DNA from: Schmidtea polychroa
Lineage: Eukaryota
Assembly: GCA_044892525.1 (NCBI GenBank)
Contig: CM097885.1
Span: forward strand, 5,396,001-5,460,000
Length of the DNA: 64,000 nt
Direction: 5' to 3'
In this document: piece after piece, positions 22,778 through 59,965 of the stretch
Layout: the number at the start of each line of letters is the position of its first letter
Position numbering within the stretch: the stretch's first letter is position 1
Translations under genes and position numbers: made by a program
Notes under the pieces: generated by a model
What the model saw: only the letters and a program-made list of their open reading frames with translations
The model's database searches: none
Told to the model about the DNA's origin: nothing

Positions 22778-25700
22778 CATGAAAAAGGTCAAATTATAGT
22801 TTTATAAGTTATTTTTATTCAAATGGTACAGATTGAGCCTCCTTGGCTGAGAGGGTTTACGACAAATGTCAATCAGGATTGTTTTGAGATATCCAAATAT
22901 ATATTACAATCATTTGAGGCTTTTTTTATTAAGAGCTGACTATTATTTCCATTTTAATAAAAGATGTATCATTAAGTCATTGCACTGTTTTCTATTTAAC
23001 ACTTATTTTTGACAATGTCTTTTTCAAGTTCATCCTTTGCACACCATTTCCAGTATAGATTCTTTAAGCAAACAGCAGAGAAGGCTCATATATCAAGCTA
23101 AATATACTATATAAACATGTATTATGGGAAATGGCAGAGCAGCAAGGATGAAGTATTACAATTATACACCGATTCTAAACTCTTAGAGACTACAGTAAGG
23201 GGAAAACATATTATAATTAAACGTTGAATTCGGGTTGTATGTTTGTTGTGTGAGTTCTTCTTTCCAACCGTTTATTGGTTCTATTTTGCCTTTGAAAATA
23301 ATGATATCATTAGAATATTTATTTCCTACCTTTTTGTGATGGGGTTGAAAGGAAGGTTGACAGAATGAAAGTAAAAGGTATATTCATGTCTAACTCCTTC
23401 GGTAATAGACTTGATATATAAAATGTGGTATAAAGTGGTATAAAGTACGATATATATGGGGATGTTCGAGGAACATTTCACAGCTGAAATGTGGCGAAAT
23501 TTATAAGAATATAAAAGAAAGAATCTTATATTAAAATAAATATTTTGTTGTTAATTGTGACACAGATCATCGAACAATGTCTAAATCTTCAAACCTCGGG
23601 AAAACTAGCATAGGATGCGATTGCGCATTGGTTGTCCTTGTCTTTGCTCATCCAGATGTATCCGTTCATTCCCCATTTTGAACTCCAGCTGTTTTTCACG
23701 ATCCAATAATTATCCAATACGTTTGTGCCGTATCCTACGACCAATACTGCATGGTCAATAATTTGAGAACAGTTTGGATCGTTATAAACTCCTGATCTAA
23801 TTATTTACATGATTTATCAACTACTTTCTATAAAAGGTTTTACTTATATAACTGAAACTTCCTCGATACACTAATTGCAACCGATATTGGTCCTTCGTTG
23901 GCCACTGCAATCGCTAAACTCTCTTCATTATTATTTATTTTTTTGTATCCATTGACAGAGGTGACCACTTTCGAACGATTGAACATGCAATTGAGTTTCT
24001 ATAAATATAAAATCAAATCAAATAGTAAGATAAATAATTTGATAGACCCCCCCCCTTCCGTCAGACATAAAAATTAATGCTTTTAATGTTAAATTGCTTT
24101 TTTTATCATAAAATGTTGAACATCTCCAATACAATGATAAAGTGAAGGTTACATCATTGCTTACAGAAAGGGGAGGCTCTGAGTCCATTTTGTATTACGA
24201 AACACTAACTAGGTTAAGTCAGCACTTTGAATAAATAATTGGAATATTCTCAGGTTTTCTGATTGTTCTTTTTCTTATATATTATAAACGTTATCATCCG
24301 ACAAAATTAAGTATATAATAATTATGTAATAAAAATAACACTTGATAAAGGCAGCGCTGAAAGTTTGTGTTAAATCGACAACAATATTGATCAACAGTTG
24401 AAATGAGGATAATTGAAATTTCAAATGAAAATAGAAACAGGTCCAGGTGAAGTAAAAATAAATATTCTTTTATATAAGTAAATATTATTTTCAACTTAGG
24501 AAAATTTTATTTCATAAATAGATTAATAAAATTGTTAATTTTTCATTTTACCAAAAATTTGGTCTAGATAATCAGTTTTACAGAAACATCAAGGCCAGCG
24601 ACATATTTAACAGTTTATCACTCTTATGTCAAGATTTCTATGCCACCCTCTTCACAATTCAAAATACATATTGACAATCACAAATGTTGTCATAAGTTAT
24701 TTTAAGAAGAGAATCCAGTATCAGTCTGTTTTATTAAAAAGTGAAAATAATTAAAGTATAGTGGGTTTATTAGTTTAAACCAGCCATGGCCAACCGGTGG
24801 CCCGCGAAGCGTTTTGATGTGGCCCGGACACAATTTTAAACATCAAATCAATAATTGTCTTTTTTAGAATTCATATTCGAATTAAGCATGTTTTTAATTA
24901 AAAAAATTGATTCTATGTTTACTTGAATCGTAAAAACGAGTTATATTTATTTAAATGAATTTATTGTGGCCCGTGATAGTATTTCCTTTCGATTGATTTG
25001 GGTTGGTCACCACTGGTTTAAACTTTAATAACATAATGATTAGAAATGTGACAAATCTATGATGGGGCCTTGTTGGTCTTGTGACAAAACGGCATTGGTA
25101 TAAAAGAGTTTTGGCTTAAAAAATTAGTTAATTTTCGACGAACTGAAAAATGAGGACTCCCTTGGACGACTACAATTCCAACTGTCCGTAAATATTTTCG
25201 GGTCGGTTACTCATCAACGACCATTTAATTTAAATAAAAAAAATATCATAATTTACAAAACAGTAAAAAAAATTAAGTTTTCAGAAACTAGATTGATTCA
25301 CAAAAAGTTATAATAAATTTATTGAATATTACATCCTATGCTACATAACAAAATAAATAAATACAAAAGTTTCTTACTCTTCAATTTTTACAAAAAAAGC
25401 AGAAGAAAAGTGACTAAATATTTGTAAACTATCCTTTTCAAAGGAGGCATTTCCTATGATGGCTAACTTCCTCAAATAGTTCCGTTAAACAAAGTTTTTG
25501 GTTTCGATATTTTTTATCAATTTATTAATCCACACCGATTTTTTACAATAAAATTCTAGCAGAATTTTTAATTTCTTTCGAAAGAACATAAGATATTTTC
25601 GAATTAAATTTTTTTGCAATTTCTATATATTTCTTACATTCTTTCATTTATAACGGATTTAGATATCTTATCATCTATTAATCATTTTGTTTATTTATTA

Positions 25701-26418
25701 ATTATTAATGATTTAAATATTAAAATTACAAATTTATATTAAAACATTTAGAAAACCAATATTAAATATTTCCCAATAGCGCCAGTGGGCAATACAAAAT
25801 GTATTAAAAACTTTCTGAAAGACTTACCCGAATGTTAATGAAAAATGAAATGACTGCTTGCCTATAATAACTCATTTAAACAAAATTATATTTTTCATGA
25901 ACCTTTAATAAAACGAACATTTTACCTACTTTAGCTTTGTAAGGATAATCCTGTTCTGACTCTATTCCTCCAAGTGTCATAATATCAATAAATGCTGTAT
26001 TCATCCAACCTCCGTTACATCCATTATTACTTTCGCTACAATCTATTAACTGCTGTTCTGATAAACTGACCAAACGTCTAGTCTTGCGAAAATATTGACC
26101 TTCCAAAGATCCTGTTGTTGAAAATGCCCAACAGCCTCCACAGGCACCCTAAGGACAAAATTTACATGAAGAATAAATAATAAAATGTAAAATTATGAAA
26201 TTTATTAGTAAATATCCTTTCGCATTAAATATGCAAAAGCTTGAAAACTAATGTTTTAAAATTTGTGTTAAATAAATAGAAATATTGATCAGAAATGAAG
26301 ATGAAGGAAATTGAAAATAAAAATCGATCAATGGTGAAAAGAATTAAATAGCTACTGTAAGTCAATTATATAATACTTGATAAAGGCAGTGCCGAAAATT
26401 TGTATTGAATAGGAAATT

Positions 26419-26456
<38 letters not shown>

Positions 26457-26526
26457 TTTGATCTTTTGTCATAATGAAAATATTAAAACATCGAAAGCAG
26501 ATAAAAACATTAAATATATATATATA
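22778..26526 (-). pseudogene. Inverted partial duplicate of the cathepsin L locus (part of intron 1, exons 2-4, 3' flank) inside the left TIR of Polinton A
   Basis: Near-identical reverse complement of about 58120-61968. Exons at 26148-25930, 23998-23844 and 23796-23589; exon 1 is absent. Confidence 0.93.
24781..25015. mobile_element. hAT-type MITE with 8-bp TSD (copy inside the duplicated cathepsin intron 2)
   Basis: Ends cagccatggccaacc / ggttggtcaccactg; TSD GTTTAAAC at 24773-24780 and 25016-25023; internal tggccc motifs. Confidence 0.8.
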
Positions 26527-26941: not shown

Positions 26942-29900
26942 ATGAATTGTAATATTTGTAATAAAGTTTTTTAAAATAAAACTGGATTAATTTCTCATTT
27001 AAAATCGAAAGCTCATTTATTAAAAGAAAATAATCTTAATGATACAAATTCAAAACTTTGTCTTAAATGTAAAGGAAGATTTCTACATTCTGGATATAAT
27101 AAACATTTTGAAAATTGTATCGGGAAAAATAGAGAAATATTTACATGTCCTCATTGTAACTTTTCAACAAAAGTAAATTTCTATTATTTAGAACATATAA
27201 AAGAATGTAAAAATAAAAAACAAAATCCTGACGATGAGGAATGTCATTCAGAAGGAGAACCTGATCATGTTGAAAGAGAAAAATATAACTGGGATGATTT
27301 TAATCATGTAGATGAATTTTAATTAGAAATCAATGGACCTATAACTCCGGGAGAATATATAAATAAAAATAAAAAATATATTAAAAATTCTTTCACTGAA
27401 GCTTTAAAAAATTATAAACCGACAAGGTATAATGTTATAAAATATAAAATTATAATCAAAGCAAAATACTGGCGAGGAGCAGAAGAAAAGACAACACCCT
27501 TAGATGTTGAAATTGGAATACCTTTTAAATATTTATTTTCAATTAAAGGATTTGATAAAACCATCAAAGAAATAATTAAAGCAGCAGAAGCAAAACAAGA
27601 GGAAGTAGAAAATGAATTAGGAGATTCAAACTTAGTATTCAACTCTTTCCAAACTTTAGTGATTGATTATTGGAGAGGATTACCACCCAATCCTAAATCT
27701 TATATTCCTACACCCTTTAAATCTAAAAATGTTATAAATGTACAGAATAATGATAACAAATGTTTCATCTGGTCAATACTTGCACATTTACATCCTCAAG
27801 CAACAAATCCCCAAAGAGTTTCAAAATACAAACAATATGAAAATGAATTAATATTTCCCAAAGGATTCAAACACCCAATGAAACTAGAAGACATTCCAGA
27901 ATTTGAAAAATTAAATAATCTTAAACTTAATATTTATGAACATGTTATAGGGAAAGAAATTATTCCAATTTATATTTCAGATAGTGGAACCAAGGATAAC
28001 GGAGCACAGGACAACGAGATATATCTTTTAATCTTGGAACAAGAAAATAATCAACATTATGTTTTAATAAAAAACTTTCAAGCTTTTACATCTCCAGAGA
28101 ATCCAACTAGTGGAGGAGGAACATGTAAAAGATGTCTTCATTATTCAACAACTAAAAACTCTATGATTAAACATACAAGATTTTGTGAAAAAGATGATCC
28201 AGCTTTAATTAAAATGCCTAATAATCCCAAGATGTATTTTAAAAACTTTTCAAATTTACTACAAACAGTTGGAGTTCTTTATGGTGACTTTGAATCTATA
28301 AACCATAAACAAGATTTGGTTTATCAATATTTAAAAATAATAGAAAAAAATAAACTCATGGATTTATGGAACTCCTCAGGAGAGAAGATGAAACCAGAGA
28401 GGATGAAAGCCTTTCTAAGAAAAAGAAATAAACCTAATAGTGTTAAAAAAACTAAACAATTACCATCTGCTTATAAATTATTATTTAAAAGTAATTATCC
28501 TGAACTCATAGAATCTAGAGAATATTCAATTCTAGGAGGTACCCCTGAAGAAGTCTTGAATCATTTTACTAAAAGTATAAATGATCTAGAACATGAAATA
28601 TTTAAAATATTAAAAACAAAGTATCCTCAAAATATTTCTAATCAACAACAACAAGAATATGAAAATACTTCCAACTGTTGGATGTGTAAACAGAATATTC
28701 TTCCTGATGAAAAAGTTATAGATCATGATCATTTAAAAAAGGAAAATAATTATCGAGGAGCAGCTCATAAAAATTGCAATCTTAATTGCCATACTCCTAA
28801 ATTTATACCTGTTATATTTCATAATCTTTTTGGATATGACATACATCTATTTATTAAACATTTAGCAGCAAATGCTAAAAACTCTTTCAAAGTTATCGGC
28901 TTAACAAAGGAAAAATATAAATCAGTTGAATATGGGAAATTAAAATTTATAGACTCGTTAAACTTTCTTCAAATGTCTCTAGATGGAATAGCTAAAACAA
29001 TGAAACCAGAAGATTTTAAAATCACTCGAGAATTCTTGGAAAAAAATAATATTCCTCTAGAAGAATATCCTACATGTTTAGCAAAAGGAATATATCCTTA
29101 TGACTATGTTGACTCGTTTGAAAGATATAATGAAACAATTCTTCCTAACAAAGAAGATTTCTTTTCAAACTTACTACAATCAGGGATTACAGATCAAGAA
29201 TATTCTCGAGCATTAAAAATGTGGGAATTATTCAAGTGTAAAACTTTAGGAGAATATACCAACATGTATTTATCCTTAGATGTTTATATTCTAGCAGATT
29301 GCTTTGAAGAATTTACAAACTCTTTTGTTCTTAAACCTTATAATTATATAACTGCACCCTCTTTAGCTTGGGATACTATGTTATATACCATTTGGACTTC
29401 AAATATAGAAGAAGCTGATAAAATTATAGATCTTTTAACTAACCTCGATATGTTTAATCTAATTAAAACAAACATTAGAGGAGGAGTCTCTTCAGTAATG
29501 GGGAATAGAGAAATAAAAGCTAGAAATGCAATAACTACTAGCCGAAGACTATCTAAACACCCTGATGATCCATATATGAAAATTAACAATGAGGAATTAA
29601 AAGAATTATTAGAAACAATGAAAAATCCTATATTTATACTTTATATAGATGCAACAGCTTTATATTCAGGAATTATGACTCAATATTTACCAATGAGTGA
29701 TTTCACTGAAATAGAGAACCCAACAGATGACCTTATGAAAGAAATACTTTCAACATCGAAAGATTCTCCAATAGGTTACTTTATAGAATGTGACCTCGAC
29801 TATCCAGATGATATAAAATCAGGAACAAGATATTTTCCTTTAGCTCCCATAAGAAGAAAGATTGATATCAACGAACTTTCTGAATGGCAAATCTCACAAG

Positions 29901-30619
29901 ATAAACCTCCAACAATGAAACTTCTTTGTGATCAAACAGATCGAAGGTTTTATCTTTGTCACTATAGACTCCTCCAATTTTATCTCTCACGAGGAATGAT
30001 ATTAAAAAAAGTTCATAGTGTCATAAGATTTAAACAAGCTCCATTCATGAAAGCTTTTATCGAGGAGAACATTAGGTGTCGAAACATTGCAAAAAGAGAA
30101 GGTAACCTTTTTAAAGATAATAATTATAAAATTTTAAACAATTCAGTATTTGGGAAAACAATGGAGAATGTTGATAAATATACTCATATTGAACTCCTAA
30201 CAAATACTACCAAAGATATTAAGCGTTATAATCGCATGCTAGGAAAGCCTACATTTAAAAACGCACAAGTATTTTCTGAAAATCTTACTGCAGTAGAATT
30301 AAAAAATTATGGGAAAACATATAACAAACCAATATTTATAGGGTTTACAATTTTAGAACTTTCAAAATTACAAATGTATGAAACATATTATAACATCTTA
30401 CAACCTATATACAGAGCAAATATATCAATGCATGCAATGGATACAGATTCAATGTTTTTAACAATAAGAACTCATGATTTACAAAAAGATATGAAAGAAA
30501 ATCCTATACTTTCAAATTTAATAAATTCATCTGGAGAACTATTTTCGTTTAAAGATGAAAAACCTTTTACTCCTATAGAAAATGGAATATTTATTCGTGC
30601 TAAACAATATTCATACGAA
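26942..30619 (+). pseudogene. polB: Protein-primed family B DNA polymerase, 5' part (zinc fingers, exonuclease with EndoVII-like insert, polymerase motifs A-C); disrupted
   Basis: ATG 26942 is in frame with ORF 27659-30628, with in-frame TAA stops at 26972 and 27320. Motifs DFES, FHNLFGYD, YIDATALY, KILNNSVFGK, DTDS, and CWMC...DHDH...RGAAHKNCN. Interrupted by element B after codons Y-E. Confidence 0.93.
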
Positions 30620-30736
30620 AGTAGGTAGATAGTAGCCCACTGCAGCAATGACCCCCCCCCCCCGGGGGGGGGGGGTTCTGCTGCAACTTTTTTTTTGCTG
30701 CAACTTTTTTTTGCTGCAACTTTTGATTACGCAATT

Positions 30737-31690
30737 TTTCAGACTATAGTGAGGGGGTCTCGATGGTCCTGGGATTTTCAATACAAAAAAATTTTTTCAA
30801 TACAAAAACGATGGTCCTGGGATTTTCAATACAAATAAAATTTTTTCAATACAAAAAGGCGGTCTCACTAAAAAAGCATGGAATTTTCAGACTATAGTGA
30901 GGGGGTCTCGATGGTCCTGGGATTTTCAATACAAAAAAAATTTTTCTATACAAAAACGATGGTCCTGGGATTTTCAATACAAAAAAAATTTTCTATACAA
31001 AAATCCGACTACCAATAAAAAAGCAAGGATTATTCACGCTATAGTGAAGGGGTCTCGATGGTCCTGGGATTTTCAATACAAAAAAAATTTTTCTATACAA
31101 AAATCCGACTACCACTAAAAAAGCATAGAATTTTCAGACTATAGTGAGGGGGTCTCGATGGTCCTGGGATTTTCAATACAAAAATCCGACTATCAATAAA
31201 AAAGTCAAGGATTTATCAGACTATAGTGAGGGGGTCTCGATGGTCCTCGGATTTTCAATACAAAAAAAAATTTTTCTATACAAAAACGATGGTCCTGGGA
31301 TTTTCAATACAAAAAAAATTTTTCAATACAAAAACGATGGTCCTGGGATTTTCAATACAAAAATCCGACTATCAATAAAAAAGTCAAGGATTTATCAGAC
31401 TATAGTGAGGGGTTCTCGATGGTCCTGGGATTTTCAATACAAATAAAATTTTTTCAATACAAAAACGATGGTCCTGGGATTTTCAATACAAAAAGCTGGT
31501 CTACACTAAAAAAGCATGGTAATTTAAGGTCTCAGGATATTTTCAATACAAAAAGCTGGTCTACACTAAAAAAGCATGGTAATTTAAGGTCTCAGAATAT
31601 TTTCAATACAAAAATCTGGTCTACACTAAAAAAGCCAAGGATTTTTCAGACTATAGTGAGGTGAGTCTCCTTGGTCCTGAGAAATATGTG
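30737..31690 (+). repeat. Subterminal modular repeats of element B (gactatagtgagggggtctcgatggtcctgggattttcaatacaaaa)
   Basis: The ctatagtga module recurs about 7 times on the left, and the ggtcctgggattttcaatac sub-module more often; only about 3 mirrored copies lie at about 46165-46520. Confidence 0.9.
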
Positions 31691-31714
31691 GTCTACACTA
31701 AAAACGTGGTAAAT

Positions 31715-32360
31715 TTTTCAATTAAAGTAAATAATGGTTCTAAAAAATTAAATTACAGTAAATTATGGCTCAAATTTTTAAATTACAGTAAATTATGGTC
31801 CAAATTTTTAAATTAAAGTAAATTATGGTTCTAAAAATTAAATTAAAGTAAATTATGGCTCAAATTTTTCAATTACAGTAAATAATGGTTCTAAAAATTA
31901 AATTACAGTAAATAATGGTTCTAAAAATTAAATTAAAGTAAATTATGGTTCTAAAATATTAAATTACAGTAAATTATGGTCCAGATTTTTCAATTAAAGT
32001 AAATAATGGTCCTAAAAAATTAAATTACAGTAAATTATGGTCCAAATTTTTCTATTACAGTTAATTATGGTCCTAAAAAATTAAATTAAAGTAAATTATG
32101 GCTCAAATTTTTCAATTACAGTAAATAATAGTTCTAAAAATTGAATTAAAGTAAATTATGGTTCTAAAAATTGAAATTACAGTAAATTATGGTCTAAAAA
32201 TTGAAATTACAGTAAATTATGGTTCTAAAAATTAAATTAAAGTAAATAATGGTTCTAAAAATTGAATTAAAGTAAATTATAGTTCTAAAAATTAAATTAA
32301 AGTAAATTATGGTCCTAAAAAATTAAATTAAAAGTAAATTATGGTCCAAATTTTAAAATT
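31715..32360 (+). repeat. About 30-31-bp tandem minisatellite (aattacagtaaattatggttctaaaaatta); mirrored at about 45485-46160
   Basis: About 20 degenerate tandem units visible. Confidence 0.9.
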
Positions 32361-32714
32361 AAGTAATCAATGGTAAAAAATTTTAAATAAGTAAATTAAA
32401 GTAATAATTTTTAAATTAAGTAATCAATGGTAAAAAATTTTAAATAAGTAAATTAAAGTAAGATTTTAAAAATTTAATTACAAAAAGTTGAAGGTGTTTG
32501 AGAATTGAAATTTTTTAATGAAAATTTTTATGAAATATTTTTCAATGGTAATTTTTTATGGAAATTTTTATGAAATATTTTTCAATGGTAATTTTTAATG
32601 AAAATTTTTATGAAATATTTTTCAATGATAATTTTAGATGGAAATTTTTAAGATAACTTTTAATGAAAATTTTTATGAAATATTTTTCAAAGACAAATTT
32701 TAATAATAATTCAA

Positions 32715-33880
32715 CAACAAACCAACAACTTAGTACCAACAACCAGTAACTTACGAACATGTAGTTACAACCAGATACCTACAACTAGTTACTAACAACT
32801 AGTTACCTGCTACCAAGTACTTACAACTAGATACCACGTACTAACTAACTCTCAAACAACCAGATACTTACAACCAATTACCACCTACCCATTAACTAGC
32901 TACAACCAGCTAACTAGGTACCTGATACCAAGTACTAACAACCAGTTACCAACTACTAAGCACCTACAACCACCTACAAAGTACATATAACCAACCAACT
33001 AGGTACTAGATACCAAGTACTTGCAACCAACATCAACCAGGTACTAAGCATTAATTACCAACTACTAAGTACCTACAACCACCTACCCATTAACTAGCTA
33101 CAACCAGTTAACAGCAACCAACCAACTACCAAGTACTAACAACCAAAAACAAGCAACCAACTAGGTACCAAGCATCATCAACTAGATACCAAGTACCTTC
33201 AACCAACTAGCTACCACCTACCAATTAACTAGCTACAACCAGCTAACTAGGTACTAGATACCAAGTACTAACAACCAGTTACCAACTACTAAGCATTAAT
33301 TACCTACAACTAGTTACTAAAAACTAGTTACCTGATAGCAAGTACTTACAACTAGATACCACGCACTAACTAACTCTCAAACAACCAGATACTTACAACC
33401 AGTTACCAACTACTAACTACCTACAACCACCTACTAAGTACCAACAACCGACAACAACCAAGTACTAAGCATTAATTACCACCTACCAAGTACTAACAAC
33501 CAACAACAACCAGCTAACAACTAACTACCACCTACCAAGTACCTACAACCAACTACCAAGTACCAAGTACTAACAACTAGGTACCAGATACCAAGTACTA
33601 ACAACCACCAACAACCAGATACCTACAACTAGTTACTAACAACCAGTTACCTGCTACTAAGTACCTACAACCAACTAGCTACCACCTACCAAGTACCAAC
33701 AACCACCTACCCATTAACTAGCTACTAAGTACTAACAACTAACTACCACCTACCAAGTACATACAACCAACATCAACCAGGTACTAAGTATTATCAACCA
33801 AGTACTAACAACCAAGTAACTTACCTAGTACTAAGCACTGTCAACTAGATACCAAACACTTACAACCAGATGACCACATG
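32715..33880 (+). repeat. C/A-rich shuffled short-word repeat; G/T-rich mirror at about 43965-45130
   Basis: Recombined words such as accaagtact, aacaacc, ccagatac and aactagtt, with strong strand asymmetry. Confidence 0.85.
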
Positions 33881-34312
33881 AAATTATTGGTTAAATATGA
33901 AAATAAGGGTTATAATTAGTTGTTTAGTAAATTATGGTGTAAAATTAAGTAATAAAGGATAAATAGGCAAATTAAGGATAAGTAAATTAAAGTTAAAAAT
34001 TTTAAATAAGTAAATTAAGGTTCAAAATTTTAAATTAAAGGAAACAATGGTTTAAATTTTATATTAAAGCTAAATGAATAAATTAAAGTAATAATTTTTA
34101 AATAAGTAATGTAATAAGTAAATTAAACTAAGATTTTTAAATTTATTAACAAAAAATAGAAGGTGTTTGAGAATTGAAATTTTTTAATGAAAATTTTTAT
34201 GAAATAATTTTTAGGATAATTTTTAATGAAAATTTTTATGAAATATTTTTTAAGTTAATTTTTAATGGAAATTTTAATGGAATAATAATAATAATAAAAA
34301 TAATAATAATAG

Positions 34313-34343
<31 letters not shown>

Positions 34344-34761
34344 TCAACAGTTACCAACAATCGGTTACTAAATATTTTTAACTAGGTGCTAACAAATACT
34401 TACAACATGATACCACGTACTAACTAACTCTCAAACAACCAGATACTTACAACTAACTACTAAATATTCTTCACTGTATTTTATGAAATGCTTTTTAAAT
34501 TAATTTTTTATCTATCTACAAAAATATATTTAATTACAATCATTAGAAAAACCTTTTCAAATTTAACAAAAATGTTGATTTTCATCAAAAAACCACAACT
34601 CATCACCACGTGAAATTCAAAATAATTTAAATTACAATGAAAGACTAATGAATTCTAATTTACAAAACATTCTTCTTTTAAATGATAACTACTGACTTAT
34701 TATTGCAATGTAAAAATTGCATTCAATAAATACTTATTGTTGATCAGTTTTATTATATATA

Positions 34762-37700
34762 CTCTGAGTTTATCCGACAGGATGTTTTGACCCCCTAAGG
34801 GTACAGGTCGTAAGGGTACTGGTCGCAAGGGTACTGGTCGTAAAGGTACTAGTCGTAGGGGTATTGGTAACACTCAACCACAACCTACCCATTAACTAGC
34901 TACTAAGTACTAACAACCAGTTACCTGATACCAACTACTAACAACCACCATCAAAACCCATCGAGAAATTAACAAATATCAACCTACAACTATATAACAA
35001 CAACCAATAAACAACACTGTACCAACTACCATATACAAGATACCAACAACTTAGTACCAACAATCAACTAACCACACATAAAAATAATAGCAATTAAATA
35101 CAAAATACTCTTCATCACATACACTATTTTCTTATCAAAATCTAAAAAGTCAACCAACTACTTACAACCAACAACTATGTACTAACAAATTGATCTTTAA
35201 AAGCAAATACTCATCACTTGAAAAATTAGATGGAAAATTAATTGAACTCAAGGCATCAATAACTTGATAAAAATTGATTAAATTATTGTAAAAAATTTAA
35301 ATTATTCGAAATAAATATCATAAAAATTTAATTAATGGACAAGAAAAAATTCTAATCATCCAATAAATAAAAAAAAATGCTGATCATTCAAGTTGAATCA
35401 ACTAAGATAATAAATTAATAAGATAAGATCTAGTAGATAATTGATTTAGATTGAATAAATTATTTGAAATAAAATTAATTTTAAGTATTTTTTTTAAAAG
35501 TAATACATGTACTCAAATCTATTTACTAATTCCTCAATATATTCAAAAAATCAGTATGAATTCATTAAAATTATCAAAGTCAGCAATCTACAATAAAAAT
35601 AATTATCATTAAATTCCAAAAGAGACTAGATAACTAATGATAACATCTAACAAACCAGTAAATTCATTTAAATAATTGGTATATTCAAGCGAATTCTCTA
35701 ATAAAATCATCTAAAAAGAATCATTTTCCCTGAAATATATCAATATTTAAAGATTGGTATCTTATCGATAAGTACTTGTTAAAGATCATATATTCACCTC
35801 GAACTAACAAGATTCCTTAAAATCCCTCAAATGACTATATTTCTACCCTTAATTCGTATTATTACAAATATTTCACTAAAATCATCTAAAAAGCATCAAA
35901 TTTCCCTGAAATAACTATATCTTTAAAGATTAGTATTTTATCGATAAATATCCTTAAAAGGTTATATATTTACCTCTGACTAATAAGATTGCTTAAAATC
36001 CCTTTTTATCACGAATATTTCCTTATAAAACATGTAAAATCATTAACCCTAAAGAATTTATAAAATCTAATGACAAAACCGGTTATAATAAAATTTTTGT
36101 TAATCACTGTAAATTTTTGTAAATCACTGTACTCGAAATTTAAAATAAATATAACTGACTAGGTCCCATTGAAAGATTAAATTTATCCATTCAATAAAAT
36201 ATATTTCTTCAAATGATCATTTTACCGATATTCAACCGATTTAATTACTAATTAAAATCAAGATTTCTTCCAATAAAGATCAATTTTATTTAGTTGTCGA
36301 TGTTTTAAATCAATATTTCTCAACTTTTGTCGTTGTCCGTCTAAATAAAGATAAAAATAATTTAAAGTTGATATCAATCCCAATTATCTGTAAAGTTTTC
36401 ATCGTCAAAACCAAGTAAATCGATCATTATCCCTACTTAATAAAACATTGTTCTAAAATAATTTACTATGCATTAATCACAACCTAATAAAACGATATAA
36501 TTATTATTGATTCATAACTGACTAATGTATTGCAATTTCCTTAAAAAACATTGATATTTTACCAACATCACCCTTAAAAAATCATATATTCCCATCGAAA
36601 CCCTTCCCTCATTAAAAGCAACCGACTATATCTCCCTCACAATAATATATTCCCATCTTAACCCATCTCACATTAAATCTAACCGACTATATCCCCTTAA
36701 AAGATCATATTTTCCCCATCTTAACCGACCTCTCATTAAATCTAACCAACAATATCCCATCTTAACCGATCTCTCATTAAATCTAACCGACTATATCCCT
36801 TTAAAAATCGTATATTCCCATCTTAACCCATCCCTCATTAAATTTAATAACCGACAATATCCCATCTTATCCAATCTCTCAGCAAATATTTCTACCCTTT
36901 TAAACATCTAACCGAATATATCCTTCAATTCTACCCACTTGAATCCTCCTTTAATTCAATTCAGTCTTAAAATCTTTAAAGAACTTCAAAAATATGACTT
37001 AATTGTTATAGACACCAAATATTCTTCCATTGAAATAATTTAGTAGCTATGTAGTAAGAGTTCACTAAAAGATCAAAAATCAATATTTTCTACAAATATT
37101 TACCATCAAATACTGGAGATGATATATATTGATTGATCATAATTCTTCATCGATTCAACCAATCATTTTCAAGTAAGTTAACTGGTTTCTTAGCTCATGT
37201 TTTTTAAAGTTCATCAATGAGTAAATATTCTTAGAAAAATATTGAAAACATTATTTAGTCAAATACATTACAAAGTTATCATCAAAAATCACTTAATTAT
37301 TAACCTAATTGTCAATGAAATTAATTTTTATTTAAAAACTATTCAATAAAATACAACTAATTATCAAGAAATTAATTAAATTTATCATAGAACTAACTTT
37401 AAATATTCATTCAATAAACATGAAATTCACAAAAAACGATAAAAATTCACAAAAATAATAGAAATTCACAAAAATAATAGAAATTCACAAAAATAATAGA
37501 AATTCACAAAATTGATAAAAATTCACAAAAAACGATAAAAATTCACAAGAATGATAGAAATTCACAAGAATGATAAAAATCCACAAGAATAATAGAAATT
37601 CACAAGAATGATAGAAATTCATAAAAATGATAGAAATTCATAAAAATGATAGAAATTCACAAAAAAGATAGAAATTTACTTGAATAAAACCATCAACTCT

Positions 37701-37865
37701 AAAAATTATCAATGAATGCCTTATACAAATTTGCCTAAATAATCATTCAAATAAAAACATTAAATACCTTTACAACTAATACCCTTGCGACATGTTGAAT
37801 GTGAGTAGTACCCTTGTGAGCAATACCCATAGGGGGACAGAATATTTTGTCGGATAAACTCAGAG
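34762..37865. mobile_element. TA-flanked non-autonomous TIR element nested in the arm of B (mirror at 39979-43082)
   Basis: 18-bp perfect TIR ctctgagtttatccgaca / tgtcggataaactcagag, flanked by TA on both sides, with subterminal 15-bp repeats (gggtactggtcgtaa). Confidence 0.65.
37420..37680 (+). repeat. 19-bp tandem repeat (aaattcacaaaaataatag); mirror at about 40165-40425
   Basis: About 13 tandem units. Confidence 0.9.
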
Positions 37866-40800
37866 TATATATTAATTAACTCATTTTTCATTGAATTAGT
37901 CAAATTATCATAAATTTCGATAAAAAATCTAAAGTGGTAAGCAATGTAAAGAGAAATATTCTTTAAACTTTGATAAAATTAACAATGAAGGTGGTAAGAA
38001 TCTTCATTAAAGTGAGGAAATTACTCGATGATAAATTCAAATGGGTGAAAATAATTGGTAGAATAATTCATTAATGGAGGTAAATAATGAGAAGTGGCAT
38101 AGATAAGAAGAAGGTTGATAAAAATGTAAATATATTAATTGAATTTATTTAAAATTATTTCATAAAATTCATAAATTTAATAAAAAAAACTTTTAAAACA
38201 AATATTTGTGGGGAATAATTAATCAAAATCGGGGGGATATTAGTGATTAATTAATGGAAAATAGAGAATCGGGGAATATAAGTGAATAATTAATGGAAAT
38301 TCTAGGGAATACAAATGATTAAATAGTGGAAATCGGGGGAATATAGGAGATTAAATAGTGGGATAATGAGAATCGGTGGAATATAAGTGAGAAGGATATG
38401 TAATTTAAACTATTTTATTACATAACAAGCCGTGACTAGTTTATTACATAACAAGCTGTGAATAGTATTTTATTGAAAATTATTGATTAGGTCTTTTTTT
38501 TTTAATTTTTGAATAGGTACTTTAATACCTTAATAATTTAAATGTTTTGATTTACACTAATTAATTTCTAAATCAATTACCATTTTCAATCAATATAAGT
38601 TAATATTCAAATATAAGTCTTCGAAAATATAAATTTTATAAGTAAAGCTTTTTTAAATAAATTTAAATAAGAAATTAATTTATTACCAGTTATATACTTT
38701 AAAACTTTTTTATGTAATAAGACAAAAATTTTGTTGTATAAGTCCTTTAATATTGTAATAATTATTTATTAATAAATTTATTATTCTACACTAAATATTT
38801 CAAAAACAATTATCATATTATTAATTATATTACTCCTTTCAATAAAAATAAGATAAATATTCAAATAAATGACTTATAAAATACAATTAAAATTAAATTC
38901 TTTACACGAAATTTAAAAATATAAATTTTATAAGAAAATGTGAATAAGAAATTGATTTATTAACAGTTATAGACTTCTTAAACTTAATGATGAAATTAGG
39001 TAATAGAAAGTAATTTTTCTTTTTAAAAAGTCCTTTAATATTGTATTCTATTCATTATTAAATTTACTATTTTACACTAAAATATTTTAATTTAGAAAAA
39101 AAAAATCATCATAATATTGAATATAATACTTCAATCAAAATAAGTAAATACTCAAATATATGTCTTATAAAATACAATCAAAATTTAATATTTCACTAAA
39201 TTTTAAGTAAAGTTTTTTAAATTCTCAAATAAATGTTAACACGATATTAATTTATTAATCATTATATACTTTTTAAACTTATTATTGGAATAAAACAATA
39301 GAATGATATTGAAAATATATACAATTTAAAAATACAATAAAAATTAAATTACATACTAGGTAAAATGTTGGTAAAATCCCGTTCACAGCTTGTTATGTAA
39401 TAAACTAGTCACGGCTTGTTATGTAATAAAATAGTTTAAATTACATATCCTTCTCACTTATATTCCACCGATTCTCATTATCCCACTATTTAATCTCCTA
39501 TATTCCCCCGATTTCCACTATTTAATCATTTGTATTCCCTAGAATTTCCATTAATTATTCACTTATATTCCCCGATTCTCTATTTTCCATTAATTAATCA
39601 CTAATATCCCCCCGATTTTGATTAATTATTCCCCACAAATATTTGTTTTAAAAGTTTTTTTTATTAAATTTATGAATTTTATGAAATAATTTTAAATAAA
39701 TTCAATTAATATATTTACATTTTTATCAACCTTCTTCTTATCTATGCCACTTCTCATTATTTACCTCCATTAATGAATTATTCTACCAATTATTTTCACC
39801 CATTTGAATTTATCATCGAGTAATTTCCTCACTTTAATGAAGATTCTTACCACCTTCATTGTTAATTTTATCAAAGTTTAAAGAATATTTCTCTTTACAT
39901 TGCTTACCACTTTAGATTTTTTATCGAAATTTATGATAATTTGACTAATTCAATGAAAAATGAGTTAATTAATATATACTCTGAGTTTATCCGACAAAAT
40001 ATTCTGTCCCCCTATGGGTATTGCTCACAAGGGTACTACTCACATTCAACATGTCGCAAGGGTATTAGTTGTAAAGGTATTTAATGTTTTTATTTGAATG
40101 ATTATTTAGGCAAATTTGTATAAGGCATTCATTGATAATTTTTAGAGTTGATGGTTTTATTCAAGTAAATTTCTATCTTTTTTGTGAATTTCTATCATTT
40201 TTATGAATTTCTATCATTTTTATGAATTTCTATCATTCTTGTGAATTTCTATTATTCTTGTGGATTTTTATCATTCTTGTGAATTTCTATCATTCTTGTG
40301 AATTTTTATCGTTTTTTGTGAATTTTTATCAATTTTGTGAATTTCTATTATTTTTGTGAATTTCTATTATTTTTGTGAATTTCTATTATTTTTGTGAATT
40401 TTTATCGTTTTTTGTGAATTTCATGTTTATTGAATGAATATTTAAAGTTAGTTCTATGATAAATTTAATTAATTTCTTGATAATTAGTTGTATTTTATTG
40501 AATAGTTTTTAAATAAAAATTAATTTCATTGACAATTAGGTTAATAATTAAGTGATTTTTGATGATAACTTTGTAATGTATTTGACTAAATAATGTTTTC
40601 AATATTTTTCTAAGAATATTTACTCATTGATGAACTTTAAAAAACATGAGCTAAGAAACCAGTTAACTTACTTGAAAATGATTGGTTGAATCGATGAAGA
40701 ATTATGATCAATCAATATATATCATCTCCAGTATTTGATGGTAAATATTTGTAGAAAATATTGATTTTTGATCTTTTAGTGAACTCTTACTACATAGCTA

Positions 40801-43500
40801 CTAAATTATTTCAATGGAAGAATATTTGGTGTCTATAACAATTAAGTCATATTTTTGAAGTTCTTTAAAGATTTTAAGACTGAATTGAATTAAAGGAGGA
40901 TTCAAGTGGGTAGAATTGAAGGATATATTCGGTTAGATGTTTAAAAGGGTAGAAATATTTGCTGAGAGATTGGATAAGATGGGATATTGTCGGTTATTAA
41001 ATTTAATGAGGGATGGGTTAAGATGGGAATATACGATTTTTAAAGGGATATAGTCGGTTAGATTTAATGAGAGATCGGTTAAGATGGGATATTGTTGGTT
41101 AGATTTAATGAGAGGTCGGTTAAGATGGGGAAAATATGATCTTTTAAGGGGATATAGTCGGTTAGATTTAATGTGAGATGGGTTAAGATGGGAATATATT
41201 ATTGTGAGGGAGATATAGTCGGTTGCTTTTAATGAGGGAAGGGTTTCGATGGGAATATATGATTTTTTAAGGGTGATGTTGGTAAAATATCAATGTTTTT
41301 TAAGGAAATTGCAATACATTAGTCAGTTATGAATCAATAATAATTATATCGTTTTATTAGGTTGTGATTAATGCATAGTAAATTATTTTAGAACAATGTT
41401 TTATTAAGTAGGGATAATGATCGATTTACTTGGTTTTGACGATGAAAACTTTACAGATAATTGGGATTGATATCAACTTTAAATTATTTTTATCTTTATT
41501 TAGACGGACAACGACAAAAGTTGAGAAATATTGATTTAAAACATCGACAACTAAATAAAATTGATCTTTATTGGAAGAAATCTTGATTTTAATTAGTAAT
41601 TAAATCGGTTGAATATCGGTAAAATGATCATTTGAAGAAATATATTTTATTGAATGGATAAATTTAATCTTTCAATGGGACCTAGTCAGTTATATTTATT
41701 TTAAATTTCGAGTACAGTGATTTACAAAAATTTACAGTGATTAACAAAAATTTTATTATAACCGGTTTTGTCATTAGATTTTATAAATTCTTTAGGGTTA
41801 ATGATTTTACATGTTTTATAAGGAAATATTCGTGATAAAAAGGGATTTTAAGCAATCTTATTAGTCAGAGGTAAATATATAACCTTTTAAGGATATTTAT
41901 CGATAAAATACTAATCTTTAAAGATATAGTTATTTCAGGGAAATTTGATGCTTTTTAGATGATTTTAGTGAAATATTTGTAATAATACGAATTAAGGGTA
42001 GAAATATAGTCATTTGAGGGATTTTAAGGAATCTTGTTAGTTCGAGGTGAATATATGATCTTTAACAAGTACTTATCGATAAGATACCAATCTTTAAATA
42101 TTGATATATTTCAGGGAAAATGATTCTTTTTAGATGATTTTATTAGAGAATTCGCTTGAATATACCAATTATTTAAATGAATTTACTGGTTTGTTAGATG
42201 TTATCATTAGTTATCTAGTCTCTTTTGGAATTTAATGATAATTATTTTTATTGTAGATTGCTGACTTTGATAATTTTAATGAATTCATACTGATTTTTTG
42301 AATATATTGAGGAATTAGTAAATAGATTTGAGTACATGTATTACTTTTAAAAAAAATACTTAAAATTAATTTTATTTCAAATAATTTATTCAATCTAAAT
42401 CAATTATCTACTAGATCTTATCTTATTAATTTATTATCTTAGTTGATTCAACTTGAATGATCAGCATTTTTTTTTATTTATTGGATGATTAGAATTTTTT
42501 CTTGTCCATTAATTAAATTTTTATGATATTTATTTCGAATAATTTAAATTTTTTACAATAATTTAATCAATTTTTATCAAGTTATTGATGCCTTGAGTTC
42601 AATTAATTTTCCATCTAATTTTTCAAGTGATGAGTATTTGCTTTTAAAGATCAATTTGTTAGTACATAGTTGTTGGTTGTAAGTAGTTGGTTGACTTTTT
42701 AGATTTTGATAAGAAAATAGTGTATGTGATGAAGAGTATTTTGTATTTAATTGCTATTATTTTTATGTGTGGTTAGTTGATTGTTGGTACTAAGTTGTTG
42801 GTATCTTGTATATGGTAGTTGGTACAGTGTTGTTTATTGGTTGTTGTTATATAGTTGTAGGTTGATATTTGTTAATTTCTCGATGGGTTTTGATGGTGGT
42901 TGTTAGTAGTTGGTATCAGGTAACTGGTTGTTAGTACTTAGTAGCTAGTTAATGGGTAGGTTGTGGTTGAGTGTTACCAATACCCCTACGACTAGTACCT
43001 TTACGACCAGTACCCTTGCGACCAGTACCCTTACGACCTGTACCCTTAGGGGGTCAAAACATCCTGTCGGATAAACTCAGAGTATATATAATAAAACTGA
43101 TCAACAATAAGTATTTATTGAATGCAATTTTTACATTGCAATAATAAGTCAGTAGTTATCATTTAAAAGAAGAATGTTTTGTAAATTAGAATTCATTAGT
43201 CTTTCATTGTAATTTAAATTATTTTGAATTTCACGTGGTGATGAGTTGTGGTTTTTTGATGAAAATCAACATTTTTGTTAAATTTGAAAAGGTTTTTCTA
43301 ATGATTGTAATTAAATATATTTTTGTAGATAGATAAAAAATTAATTTAAAAAGCATTTCATAAAATACAGTGAAGAATATTTAGTAGTTAGTTGTAAGTA
43401 TCTGGTTGTTTGAGAGTTAGTTAGTACGTGGTATCATGTTGTAAGTATTTGTTAGCACCTAGTTAAAAATATTTAGTAACCGATTGTTGGTAACTGTTGA

Positions 43501-43531
<31 letters not shown>

Positions 43532-46500
43532 CTATTATTATTATTTTTATTATTATTATTATTCCATTAAAATTTCCATTAAAAATTAACTTAAAAAATA
43601 TTTCATAAAAATTTTCATTAAAAATTATCCTAAAAATTATTTCATAAAAATTTTCATTAAAAAATTTCAATTCTCAAACACCTTCTATTTTTTGTTAATA
43701 AATTTAAAAATCTTAGTTTAATTTACTTATTACATTACTTATTTAAAAATTATTACTTTAATTTATTCATTTAGCTTTAATTTAAAATTTAAACCATTGT
43801 TTCCTTTAATTTAAAATTTTGAACCTTAATTTACTTATTTAAAATTTTTAACTTTAATTTACTTATCCTTAATTTGCCTATTTATCCTTTATTACTTAAT
43901 TTTACACCATAATTTACTAAACAACTAATTATAACCCTTATTTTCATATTTAACCAATAATTTCATGTGGTCATCTGGTTGTAAGTGTTTGGTATCTAGT
44001 TGACAGTGCTTAGTACTAGGTAAGTTACTTGGTTGTTAGTACTTGGTTGATAATACTTAGTACCTGGTTGATGTTGGTTGTATGTACTTGGTAGGTGGTA
44101 GTTAGTTGTTAGTACTTAGTAGCTAGTTAATGGGTAGGTGGTTGTTGGTACTTGGTAGGTGGTAGCTAGTTGGTTGTAGGTACTTAGTAGCAGGTAACTG
44201 GTTGTTAGTAACTAGTTGTAGGTATCTGGTTGTTGGTGGTTGTTAGTACTTGGTATCTGGTAGTTGGTTGTAGGTACTTGGTAGGTGGTAGTTAGTTGTT
44301 AGCTGGTTGTTGTTGGTTGTTAGTACTTGGTAGGTGGTAGTTAGTTGTTAGTACTTGGTAGGTGGTAATTAATGCTTAGTACTTGGTTGTTGTCGGTTGT
44401 TGGTACTTAGTAGGTGGTTGTAGGTAGTTAGTAGTTGGTAACTGGTTGTAAGTATCTGGTTGTTTGAGAGTTAGTTAGTGCGTGGTATCTAGTTGTAAGT
44501 ACTTGCTATCAGGTAACTAGTTTTTAGTAACTAGTTGTAGGTAATTAATGCTTAGTAGTTGGTAACTGGTTGTTAGTACTTGGTATCTAGTACCTAGTTA
44601 GCTGGTTGTAGCTAGTTAATTGGTAGGTGGTAGCTAGTTGGTTGAAGGTACTTGGTATCTAGTTGATGATGCTTGGTACCTAGTTGGTTGCTTGTTTTTG
44701 GTTGTTAGTACTTGGTAGTTGGTTGGTTGCTGTTAACTGGTTGTAGCTAGTTAATGGGTAGGTGGTTGTAGGTACTTAGTAGTTGGTAATTAATGCTTAG
44801 TACCTGGTTGATGTTGGTTGCAAGTACTTGGTATCTAGTACCTAGTTGGTTGGTTATATGTACTTTGTAGGTGGTTGTAGGTGCTTAGTAGTTGGTAACT
44901 GGTTGTTAGTACTTGGTATCAGGTACCTAGTTAGCTGGTTGTAGCTAGTTAATGGGTAGGTGGTAATTGGTTGTAAGTATCTGGTTGTTTGAGAGTTAGT
45001 TAGTACGTGGTATCTAGTTGTAAGTACTTGGTAGCAGGTAACTAGTTGTTAGTAACTAGTTGTAGGTATCTGGTTGTAACTACATGTTCGTAAGTTACTG
45101 GTTGTTGGTACTAAGTTGTTGGTTTGTTGTTGAATTATTATTAAAATTTGTCTTTGAAAAATATTTCATAAAAATTTTCATTAAAAGTTATCTTAAAAAT
45201 TTCCATCTAAAATTATCATTGAAAAATATTTCATAAAAATTTTCATTAAAAATTACCATTGAAAAATATTTCATAAAAATTTCCATAAAAAATTACCATT
45301 GAAAAATATTTCATAAAAATTTTCATTAAAAAATTTCAATTCTCAAACACCTTCAACTTTTTGTAATTAAATTTTTAAAATCTTACTTTAATTTACTTAT
45401 TTAAAATTTTTTACCATTGATTACTTAATTTAAAAATTATTACTTTAATTTACTTATTTAAAATTTTTTACCATTGATTACTTAATTTTAAAATTTGGAC
45501 CATAATTTACTTTTAATTTAATTTTTTAGGACCATAATTTACTTTAATTTAATTTTTAGAACCATAATTTACTGTAATTTAATTTTTAGACCATAATTTA
45601 CTGTAATTTCAATTTTTAGACCATAATTTACTGTAATTTCAATTTTTAGAACCATAATTTACTTTAATTCAATTTTTAGAACTATTATTTACTGTAATTG
45701 AAAAATTTGAGCCATAATTTACTTTAATTTAATTTTTTAGGACCATAATTAACTGTAATAGAAAAATTTGGACCATAATTTACTGTAATTTAATTTTTTA
45801 GGACCATTATTTACTTTAATTGAAAAATCTGGACCATAATTTACTGTAATTTAATATTTTAGAACCATAATTTACTTTAATTTAATTTTTAGAACCATTA
45901 TTTACTGTAATTCAATTTTTAGAACCATTATTTACTGTAATTGAAAAATTTGAGCCATAATTTACTTTAATTTAATTTTTAGAACCATAATTTACTTTAA
46001 TTTAAAAATTTGGACCATAATTTACTGTAATTTAAAAATTTGAGCCATAATTTACTGTAATTTAATTTTTTAGAACCATAATTTACTGTAATTTAATTTT
46101 TAGAACCATTATTTACTGTAATTTAATTTTTTAGAACTATTATTTACTTTAATTGAAAAATTTACCACGTTTTTTAGTGTAGACCACATATTTCTCAGGA
46201 CCAAGGAGACTCACCTCACTATAGTCTGAAAAATCCTTGGCTTTTTTAGTGTAGACCAGATTTTTGTTTTGAAAATATCATGAGACCTTAAATTACCATG
46301 CTTTTTTAGTGTAGACCAGCTTTTTGTATTGAAAATATCCTGAGACCTTAAATTACCACGTTTTTTTAATGTAGACCACCTATTTCTCAGGACCAAGGAG
46401 ACTCACCTCACTATAGTCTGAAAAATCTTTGGCTTTTTTAGTGGTAGTCGGATTTTTGTATTGAAAAAAATTTTTTGTATTGAAAATCCCAGGACCATCG

Positions 46501-46660
46501 AGACCCCCTCACTATAGTGTGATAAAAAAAAATTTGGACTAAAATTCCCTGAAAGCAAAAAAATGAGTTGGGAACAATTGCGTAATAAAAATTTGGGAAC
46601 AAACCCCCCTCCCCCCCCCGGGGGGGGGTAATTGTTCCCGTGGGCTACTATCTACTTACT

Positions 46661-47281
46661 TACGAAACATTTAGAAACCCTGAATTTATAACTAGATCAT
46701 TTATATTTAAAACTCCAGAAACAGAAGAAACCATTACACATAGATATCCTATATTTCCTAAAGAAGAAAAACCTGTAAAGGATAACAGATGTAAAGGAAT
46801 ACAGAGAGTGGTTGCAAAGAATCTTTCTCATCAAGATTATATAGATACATTGAATCCAAATCATAAAGATAAAATTGATGAAATACATCAACTTAAAAGT
46901 GAAAACCATGATATTCACTTGATAGAATCTCAAAAAGTATCATTATCAAATTATGATGATAAGAGATTCATCCTAAGTGATTTAAAGACAACTCTACCTA
47001 TTGGAAATAATTTAATCCCTATAATAAAAAATCTAGAAAAGTTGAATAAGTTATATGATACAAAGATTACTGATCTTGATATTTATAATGTTGAAATTAT
47101 TTATCCCGAGAGAGAACCCAAGAGAGAAATCGAGAAGCCTTTATATTCTCAAGTTTTTAATCCTATATGTTTAGAACTTAAATATTTTAATACTGATTCT
47201 GAATATATAAAAGGTCTAAGTGATAAAGAATTTAAAGATCATAAATTAATGATTCATAGGTTGGCTTTCAACCATAACTGA
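46661..47281 (+). pseudogene. polB: pPolB C-terminal part, separated from the 5' part by element B
   Basis: YETFRNPE...KGIQRVVAKNLSHQDYIDTL...KVSLSNYDDKRFI, typical of the Polinton pPolB C-terminus; in frame across the TSD. Confidence 0.92.
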
Positions 47282-52647: not shown

Positions 52648-52658
52648 GGCTTGTCGAC

Positions 52659-54049: not shown

Positions 54050-54066
54050 TTTAAAATGTTAAAATA

Positions 54067-56593: not shown

Positions 56594-57010
56594 ATAATTT
56601 AAATTATTTTTTAATATATTACTAACAAATAAAAATATTTTAATAACGCGTTATTGATTGACATTTATTATGATAAATTATTAAATCCACATATGTTTAT
56701 TTTATTACATAACAAGCTGTGAATGGTATTTTATAAATTATTTGATGCTTTTAGAAAACATTTTACCAAATATTTATTTGAAAAGTTAGTAAGTATATAT
56801 AATTTTAATTCTATTTTTAGATTGCATATATTTTGAATATTATTCTATTGTTTAATTCCTACAATAATTTTAAAAGTCTATAACTGTTAATAAATTAATT
56901 TCTTATTTACATTATTCGAGAATTTAAAAATTTTACTTATAAAATTTATATTTTTAAATTAAAATATTTAATTGATGATTTAATTTTAATTCTATTTTAT
57001 AAAATTCATA
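56594..57010. mobile_element. Continuation of the older element-B copy (inner arm end and spacer) right of Polinton A
   Basis: ttattacataacaagctgtgaa at about 56702, and the following sequence resembles the reverse complement of about 39150-39400. Confidence 0.72.
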
Positions 57011-58020: not shown

Positions 58021-58313
<293 letters not shown>

Positions 58314-59716: not shown

Positions 59717-59965
59717 CAGTGGTGACCAACCCAAATCAATCGAAAGGCCAAATTTTCGGAAAAATACTATCACGGGCCACAATAAATTCATTTAAATAAA
59801 TAAAACTCGTTTTTACGATTCAAGTAAACATAGAATCAATTTTTTTAATTAAAAACATGCTTAATTCGAATATGAATTCTAAAAAAGACAATTATTGATT
59901 TGATGTTTAAAATTGTGTCCGGGCCACATCAAAACGCTTCGCGGGCCACCGGTTGGCCATGGCTG
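59717..59965. mobile_element. hAT-type MITE with 8-bp TSD GTTTAAAC in cathepsin intron 2
   Basis: TSD at 59709-59716 and 59966-59973; 14 bp longer than the duplicated copy at 24781-25015. Confidence 0.8.

Follow-up and report, generated by a model that had tools for sequence, protein, structure and literature searches.

Gene-less palindromic Polintons in Schmidtea polychroa and their probable maintenance by copy-back replication

A 64-kb stretch of the Schmidtea polychroa genome (GenBank assembly GCA_044892525.1, contig CM097885.1, positions 5,396,001 to 5,460,000; hereafter the window, to which positions refer unless otherwise stated) contains a 16,041-bp element, B (30620-46660), that is composed almost wholly of two inverted arms, and raises the question of how such an element could have arisen, moved and remained symmetrical. 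Our results confirm that B is a real, gene-less, non-autonomous Polinton/Maverick element and not an autonomous Polinton. It belongs to a family of gene-less non-autonomous elements, here termed S, in a genome of 781 Mb. We consider it likely that S elements are non-autonomous Polintons with the ends of a second, autonomous family, H, and that they are kept palindromic by copy-back in protein-primed replication, the H enzymes acting in trans.

Element B and family S

B is flanked on both sides by the 6-bp target-site duplication (TSD) TACGAA (30614-30619 and 46661-46666), and its left arm (30620-38462, + strand, 7,843 bp) and shorter right arm (39382-46660, - strand, 7,279 bp) make up 94.3% of its length, around a 919-bp, AT-rich and weakly repetitive spacer (38463-39381; period ~277 bp). 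The TSD length, the share of the arms and the spacer length agree with a preliminary description of the locus. The constant sum of arm coordinates, 77844, which that description had noted at points from 34174 to 38462, extends further, over 32282-38462 as mirrored on 39382-45562; this zone is exact except for 27 mismatches, 26 of which lie in a single 81-bp patch (33501-33581) within a tandem array of 7-bp period. The two ends of B, which begin AGTAG and depart from the exact vertebrate (AGT)2 motif (PMC8097293), are alike at 20 of their first 21 bases and then split into two terminal subtypes, several hundred bases of repeats being missing from the right end relative to the left. The statement that B is padded with tandem repeats is half true, these accounting for 44% of the element. 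Within each arm, a conserved motif block of ~110 bp (in the left arm 34755-34865, + strand) is paired with an inverted second block (37763-37872, - strand; 76% over 111 bp), the pair being a candidate cis signal or the end of a captured element. A 22-mer from these blocks has 6,297 exact matches in the genome, some of which form pairs in divergent orientation at a distance of 0.9-1.1 kb and may belong to a sister family of palindromes. A poly-C/poly-G hairpin, a candidate cis element, lies 20-65 bases inside each terminus (30641-30685 in the window, with equivalents in all copies).

The lack of a credible open reading frame (ORF), also reported at the outset, was borne out. The longest stop-to-stop frame in B is 144 amino acids (91-217 in 30 block shuffles), the number of frames of at least 100 amino acids is five (0-5 in the shuffles), and tblastn with 24 proteins of H and of A, the Polinton into which B is inserted, gave a single match, at E = 0.11. 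Two frames of B had no match in Pfam, and none of the pPolB, integrase, ATPase, protease and capsid genes, all of which are present in H, was found in B; no hidden gene emerged from the shuffles, tblastn or Pfam. With Rfam at E <= 1 no structured RNA was found in the left arm and spacer of B, the four matches in eight other left halves of S copies were at chance level, and ARAGORN found no tRNA in the window.

Exact genomic matches to the terminal 21-mer of B number 294 on the forward and 281 on the reverse strand (575 in all, with 0 for a control), rising to 1,422 and 1,468 (2,890) when two mismatches are allowed. The first 100 terminal matches listed gave 34 convergent pairs less than 40 kb apart, with a median of 15.7 kb; from the 33 pairs other than B, 11 copies were fetched, namely the first along contig C1 together with one short pair further on, the set omitting one 33.4-kb and one 10.7-kb pair. 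Eight of these copies, 12.4-17.2 kb long, are palindromes with two arms and no genes; neither pPolB nor integrase lies between their arms, which counts against the possibility that other copies carry autonomous genes there. Two are one-armed (8.0 and 9.0 kb), and in the remaining copy (L033/L034), a chimera, an S arm is joined to Polinton genes of H. The TSDs are exact and mutually different in 11 of 14 elements, match at 5 of 6 bases in two and are lacking in one copy, c9 (L046/L047). Other copies with the 21-bp termini and distinct TSDs therefore exist, and the presence of hundreds of copies with Polinton-type TSDs and no genes points to mobilization in trans.

An arm-interior 22-mer has 1,317 and 1,311 exact matches (2,628) in the genome. 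In the first 27 Mb, 100 matches to this marker correspond to 80 arm loci, of which 36 are unpaired, with 22 convergent compared with 2 divergent pairs, and 20 of the 22 convergent pairs are spaced 5.2-7.1 kb apart; extrapolation from this region gives roughly 580 two-armed copies genome-wide. By a rough estimate (1,445 elements of 15.7 kb) the H/S clade may fill ~3% of the genome. All 40 scored candidates for the spacer of B, one of them the copy in the window, match it over its full length at 96-100%, such that the genome has at least 40 spacers of this kind, and at two loci the spacer is folded back on itself, which indicates that new palindrome centres arise.

Comparison of a 2.3-kb interior arm segment, excluding the one-armed copies and copy c8, in which one anchor is missing, gave arm-versus-arm divergences of 0, 0, 0.05, 0.09, 0.21, 0.32, 0.45 and 6.2% within eight copies, whereas arms of different copies diverge by a median of 8.3% (0.35-11.0%, 163 pairs). 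Consistent with these values, both arms of one copy cluster together in a tree of the arm segments. Near identity within copies, combined with ~8% divergence between them, implies that the arms have been recopied repeatedly, rather than descending from one old palindrome without correction.

Arm end and spacer are both contained in 19 of 24 listed sequencing runs; none of the runs listed as containing them is of RNA, which has no bearing on expression. When this sequence was divided into 30 bins, Logan contigs covered every bin in three of the four runs examined, one of which (X1) may be from the source sample. Two contigs of run X5, from a second study, bridge the arm-spacer junction in related copies; the Logan contigs are short, none extending across the whole stretch.

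The autonomous partner H and its half-genome palindromes

The S/H chimera led to the identification of family H. Scored matches number at least 150 for the H ATPase (99-100%) and at least 131 for its pPolB (98-100%), with at least 86 same-strand ATPase-pPolB pairs within 40 kb, of which 81 span 8.1-12.4 kb. One H copy (L051/L052) is 17,085 bp long, with a TSD, terminal inverted repeats (TIRs) of 1.6 kb and 21 terminal bases identical to those of B. It has genes for an ATPase, a major capsid protein and an adenain-like protease, together with a RING ORF and a 1,419-amino acid pPolB frame; its integrase is split over two ORFs and matches a chromodomain weakly. Two further genes are putatively of minor capsid proteins, 'minor capsid' and 'PX' being presumptive labels where applied to H genes. 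Pfam was nearly silent on the H capsid (no match for the one query, a weak match for one of 52 aligned members), as were the names of 138 relatives found in a homologue search, none of which was informative, such that a fold search was needed. The capsid model (predicted local distance difference test, pLDDT, of 90) matches the capsids of iridovirus, PBCV-1, mavirus and Sputnik, with E values down to 1e-15, and a jelly-roll fold is therefore predicted.

Homology between B and H extends over the first ~2.1 kb of B (30620-32710, + strand), which corresponds to the repeat-rich TIR of H at ~75% with gaps and is identical at all 21 terminal bases. By contrast, neither H nor A has any homology to the 5.7-kb arm interior of B or to its spacer, implying that S did not arise from its helper by deletion alone; the earlier suggestion that B might be a defective genome of its helper is thus not sustained in its simple form. 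A simple internal deletion of a long-TIR Polinton was likewise rejected, given that the H TIRs are only 1.6 kb long and the S interior is foreign to H. The proposal that B is mobilized in trans by a Polinton pPolB and integrase is supported with respect to trans mobilization, but the cognate family is H and not A; from the shared sequence we infer that H would supply both polymerase and integrase to S.

H itself has given rise to palindromes built from either of its halves. One (L053/L054) has 6.1-kb arms, 99.9% identical, that bear the ATPase, integrase and minor capsid genes and lack pPolB, around a middle containing the capsid gene, the protease gene and part of the RING gene; its left terminus lies outside the sequence read, where coordinates show an extra 10.3-kb tandem duplication. 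In total there are five convergent ATPase elements (structural-half palindromes, with spans of 10.5-12.9 kb by coordinates) and 10 divergent pPolB pairs (polymerase-half palindromes), eight of the latter with estimated lengths of 16.5-18.2 kb and the others of 13.9 and 8.0 kb; inverted ATPase or pPolB pairs in the opposite orientation numbered zero. One pPolB pair (L013) is composite, its middle containing S-type DNA and an additional terminus, and a second is enclosed by two A termini at a distance of 31.7 kb, so that ~16.7 kb remains for the pair. Three H-half palindrome centres could be placed, all of which differ and lie near the parental midpoint of 8.5 kb, including that of a polymerase-half copy on contig C3 (~8.2 kb) and that of one structural-half copy, inside the RING gene (8.6-9.7 kb).

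Several further features of H were observed. Its integrase is divided between two consecutive ORFs in all four stretches read (L034, L051, L053 and L054), which hints at an intron or a programmed frameshift. A TBP-like ORF (PF00352, E = 5e-16) lies head to head with the ATPase gene (L034, 5258-5770; L053, 2080-2592) and is truncated in L051. The ATPase-pPolB spans fall into two size classes, ~11.1 and ~12.2 kb, the longer of which seems to be marked by the 1.1-kb RING ORF. Homologues of this ORF (64-82%, many with stops) occur in tandem arrays on C1 (~232.9-234.6 Mb), C191 and C247, and four H ATPase copies are arranged in tandem with ~4.0-kb spacing at G000:C1:213933340-213946019.

Maintenance of symmetry and length

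In the model of Kapitonov and Jurka, Polinton replication is protein-primed at both ends and passes through panhandle intermediates (bioRxiv 2026.07.28.741278; PMC8097293). For S we propose that an excised linear copy would undergo protein-primed strand-displacement replication, during which one end may be recopied from the other by panhandle repair, by copy-back or by template exchange where forks meet, such that one half would give a whole palindrome and symmetry would be renewed. Pairing between strands of different molecules would yield mixed ends and S/H chimeras, and the H integrase would insert the product with a 6-bp TSD. Copy-back or template exchange would explain the S+S symmetry, both classes of H-half palindrome and the chimeras. 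The 6.2% divergent copy, the mixed ends of B and the S/H chimera imply exchange between molecules as well. The size of 15-17 kb would, on a weaker part of the proposal, be kept by inheritance and length-conserving copying, with or without selection by capsid size.

Several observations count against this proposal. The ends are not always homogenized, since the arms of copy c6 are 6.2% apart and the ends of B itself are of different subtypes, and the flanks of c9 are mirrored, being identical over the 100 bases seen, and lack a TSD, in accord with a chromosomal or local assembly fold-back or with a larger palindrome. The H coding copies are 0.1-0.6% apart in the best gap-poor alignments, compared with ~8% for S copies, and S may thus predate the present burst of H and have used related helpers. 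All 10 polymerase-half and four of the five structural-half palindromes are known from coordinates only. No inverted ATPase pairs of palindrome type were present among 143 matches for family A, which implies that the process is not general to all Polintons in this genome. More broadly, the mechanism is reconstructed from integrated copies, that is, from fossils, rather than from intermediates, excised copies or particles.

With respect to length, an addition to the copy-back proposal, to which we give somewhat less than an even chance, is that S must fill the H capsid in order to spread between cells. It would then be a natural 'gutless vector', which retains non-coding stuffer and doubles a half-size arm into an inverted dimer. 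H encodes a jelly-roll capsid, a packaging ATPase and an adenain-like protease, and 21 of the 34 terminus pairs are within 75-105% of the 17,085 bp of H, with none under 5 kb, despite the ~8% divergence between copies and a tandem repeat content of 44%. For each of the two one-armed, half-size copies, 40 scored candidates included no second locus with its deletion junction, which is the outcome predicted if such deletions are dead ends, and eight of the 10 polymerase-half palindromes have the estimated 16.5-18.2 kb given above. There is a parallel in helper-dependent adenovirus, half-size genomes of which are reported to be packaged as direct and inverted dimers (PMC4189039). However, S copies have one ancestral layout, so that their lengths are partly inherited and not independent; six of the 34 pairs are below 75% and seven above 105%, three of the latter being ~32 kb and probably nested; the 34 mix S and H elements; and the argument rests on sizes rather than particles and on two short copies. 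The closeness of B to its helper in length, emphasized in the preliminary description, finds support in that lengths cluster near a virus size, although the appropriate comparator is H (~16-17 kb) and not A (~15 kb).

A slightly less favoured possibility, still a serious one, is that length is a by-product of replication geometry, in which forks from both ends would exchange templates on meeting in mid-element; a left palindrome and its reciprocal right counterpart, each close to unit length, would result with no size selection. Both reciprocal classes are present, the mapped centres are near the parental midpoint, and recopying at homologous positions of a palindrome conserves length exactly. 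Only three centres are mapped, however, and pairs far off centre could escape marker lists of 150 and 131 scored matches. Small non-autonomous elements usually take over, and geometry leaves unexplained why shorter, faster-replicating S deletions have not done so. On balance, a length-conserving replication accident is an explanation equally as good as packaging selection.

It is unlikely that the symmetry arose or has persisted through events on the chromosome after integration, such as gene conversion or break-induced replication acting from arm to arm, as for Foldback-type transposons. The mirrored flanks of c9 are in keeping with such a process, the mismatch patch and mixed ends of B could be conversion tracts from other copies, and an inverted 3.7-kb host copy in the left TIR of A testifies to local chromosomal rearrangement. 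Against it, 11 of the 14 elements have intact TSDs, one spacer family with both arms in step is found at dozens of sites, and replacement of a whole half in H, with loss of pPolB, would be easier before integration.

That A is the helper, as the preliminary description implied, is very improbable. B lies inside A, which is a large family, both begin AGTAG and both have 6-bp TSDs; the common termini extend to AGTAG only, there being no B-A TIR homology at E <= 0.001 compared with ~2 kb with H, and the A and H capsids are 22% identical. A is thus rejected as the cognate helper, though occasional cross-mobilization is compatible with the sequence. The least probable alternative, an assembly fold-back artefact, is in keeping with the short Logan contigs that made up the data examined, but is largely refuted by the unmirrored flanks of B, which are two parts of the A pPolB gene with a TSD, by the arm differences at 27 sites and at the ends, by recurrence of the family at hundreds of sites, and by second-study contigs that cover all 30 arm-end and spacer bins, two of them bridging the arm-spacer junction.

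The copy-back proposal for S can be set beside several known systems. Non-autonomous Polinton families are gene-less, mobilized in trans and flanked by 6-bp TSDs, and B fits such a derivative by its H termini and ~2-kb TIR, its dispersed copies with different TSDs and its lack of coding sequence; to our knowledge, Repbase aside, none has been described as a whole-length palindrome with renewed arms. Like Polinton/Mavericks such as H and those of vertebrates (PMC8097293), B has a 6-bp TSD, AG/AGT-type ends, TIRs and a length near 17 kb, but autonomous Polintons encode protein-primed PolB, integrase, ATPase, protease and capsid, whereas B is gene-less. Its inverted repeats, at 7-8 kb, also contrast with the TIRs reported for anole (584 bp; PMC3014272) and Caenorhabditis elegans (744 bp; bioRxiv 2024.01.15.575659) and with the 1.6 kb of H. 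The nearest precedent found in the literature, so far as the sources go, is that of butterfly polintons, in which gene-bearing TIRs of ~2 kb are reported to duplicate core genes, as in L053/L054, and polB-less copies to have remained mobile (bioRxiv 2025.02.07.637071); the arms in S. polychroa are 6-8 kb, nearly the whole element, and the commonest form is gene-less. Neither Polintons that are gene-less and palindromic over their whole length nor reciprocal palindromes of half-genomes were listed in the literature searched, mostly as represented by abstracts; supplements and Repbase may contain long-TIR or non-autonomous cases.

Snap-back/copy-back defective viral genomes resemble B as near-complete, non-coding palindromes with replication ends kept, but are described mainly for RNA viruses and as transient (PMC13506859), whereas S is DNA, integrated, heritable and amplified. 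Helper-derived sequence, a feature of such genomes, is not present in the B interior, which has no extended match to H or A, and is found only in the H-half palindromes, which are, by analogy, the true copy-back counterparts. Gutless adenovirus vectors likewise consist of ends and non-coding stuffer, with a stable size range of 75-105% of wild type and packaging of sub-size genomes as inverted dimers (PMC4189039); they are, however, engineered and non-integrating and their packaging has been shown, whereas that of S is a proposal. In Streptomyces linear chromosomes a duplicate of one arm of a protein-capped replicon can take the place of the opposite arm, which lengthens the TIRs (PMC5869714), albeit on a chromosome scale, by break repair via repeat recombination and with no mobile gene-less family. 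The Foldback-type Galileo has long, internally repetitive inverted arms and little or no coding middle (PMC3573991), as does B, but is far shorter. Satellite nucleic acids have little helper homology beyond cis signals, as is the case for B, which shares only the ~2-kb TIR with H. Foldback/Galileo elements have a P- or MULE-type transposase partner and 7-11-bp TSDs, unlike B with its 6-bp TSD and its Polinton ends and partner.

S is a new form of non-autonomous Polinton, comparable in its workings to a snap-back defective genome or to a gutless vector. A bolder version, which we advance tentatively and think rather less probable than its negation, is that S is a natural gutless vector and a true satellite of an animal Polinton virus, with its half-size arm carried as an inverted dimer since the helper capsid would accept only DNA close to unit length, that it has out-replicated its helper and targets Polintons, and that together with the H-half palindromes it represents copy-back defective genomes of a DNA virus that became fixed in an animal germ line. 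The particles and replication mode of animal Polintons are long-standing questions, and in the account of vertebrate Mavericks Polinton particles had not been observed to date (PMC8097293). A virus-sized gene-less family offers a natural experiment on Polinton packaging: if the capsid holds the size, amplification of short variants would not be expected, whereas protection of S DNA from nuclease would. As fossils, the reciprocal palindromes and the renewed arms would testify to strand-displacement replication from both ends, with copy-back. The long inverted repeats of the S/H clade are overlooked by gene-based Polinton searches and may be discarded by assemblers as artefacts.

Polinton A and insertion sites

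Polinton A, the host of the B insertion, occupies 22109-56593 with the TSD ATAATT. Its pPolB gene (PF03175) is broken by B into a 5' part (27323-30619, + strand) and a 3' part (46667-47281, + strand), and its ATPase (PF04665), PLA2-integrase (PF08398, PF00665) and jelly-roll capsid (PF21738) genes lie at 51841-55359. Family A has 481 and 461 termini, with 34 pairs of median length 15.0 kb, 25 of which are at 13.5-15.6 kb. Degenerate S-like pieces flank A, comprising B-like arm pieces to its left (20226-22108, + strand; 70-91%), a B-like spacer piece to its right (56787-57002, - strand; 83% over 165 bp) and a further piece at 62964-63629. These suggest that A sits in an older B-type copy, giving three-level nesting of an old S copy, A and then B.

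Of 20 insertion sites, 12 have flanks with matches to Polinton proteins or DNA (11 of 19 if B is set aside), whereas the H/S and A clades make up roughly 4% of the genome. The excess, computed against assumed backgrounds and with some single termini possibly being internal rearrangements, holds up to a background of 30% (p = 0.01) and not at 40%; a preference of S for insertion into other Polintons is accordingly a lead only. Related elements are reported to be nested frequently (bioRxiv 2026.07.28.741278). An A-family pPolB gene is broken both by B and by the chimera L033/L034.

The left TIR of A is split by the inverted 3.7-kb copy (22778-26526), which is 99.4% identical to 58116-61968, a neighbouring host region with a papain-family protease gene, and represents a capture or local inversion. 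The window also contains a Tc1/mariner-type transposase ORF (6148-7137) and an ABC-F-like ATPase ORF (16911-18530).

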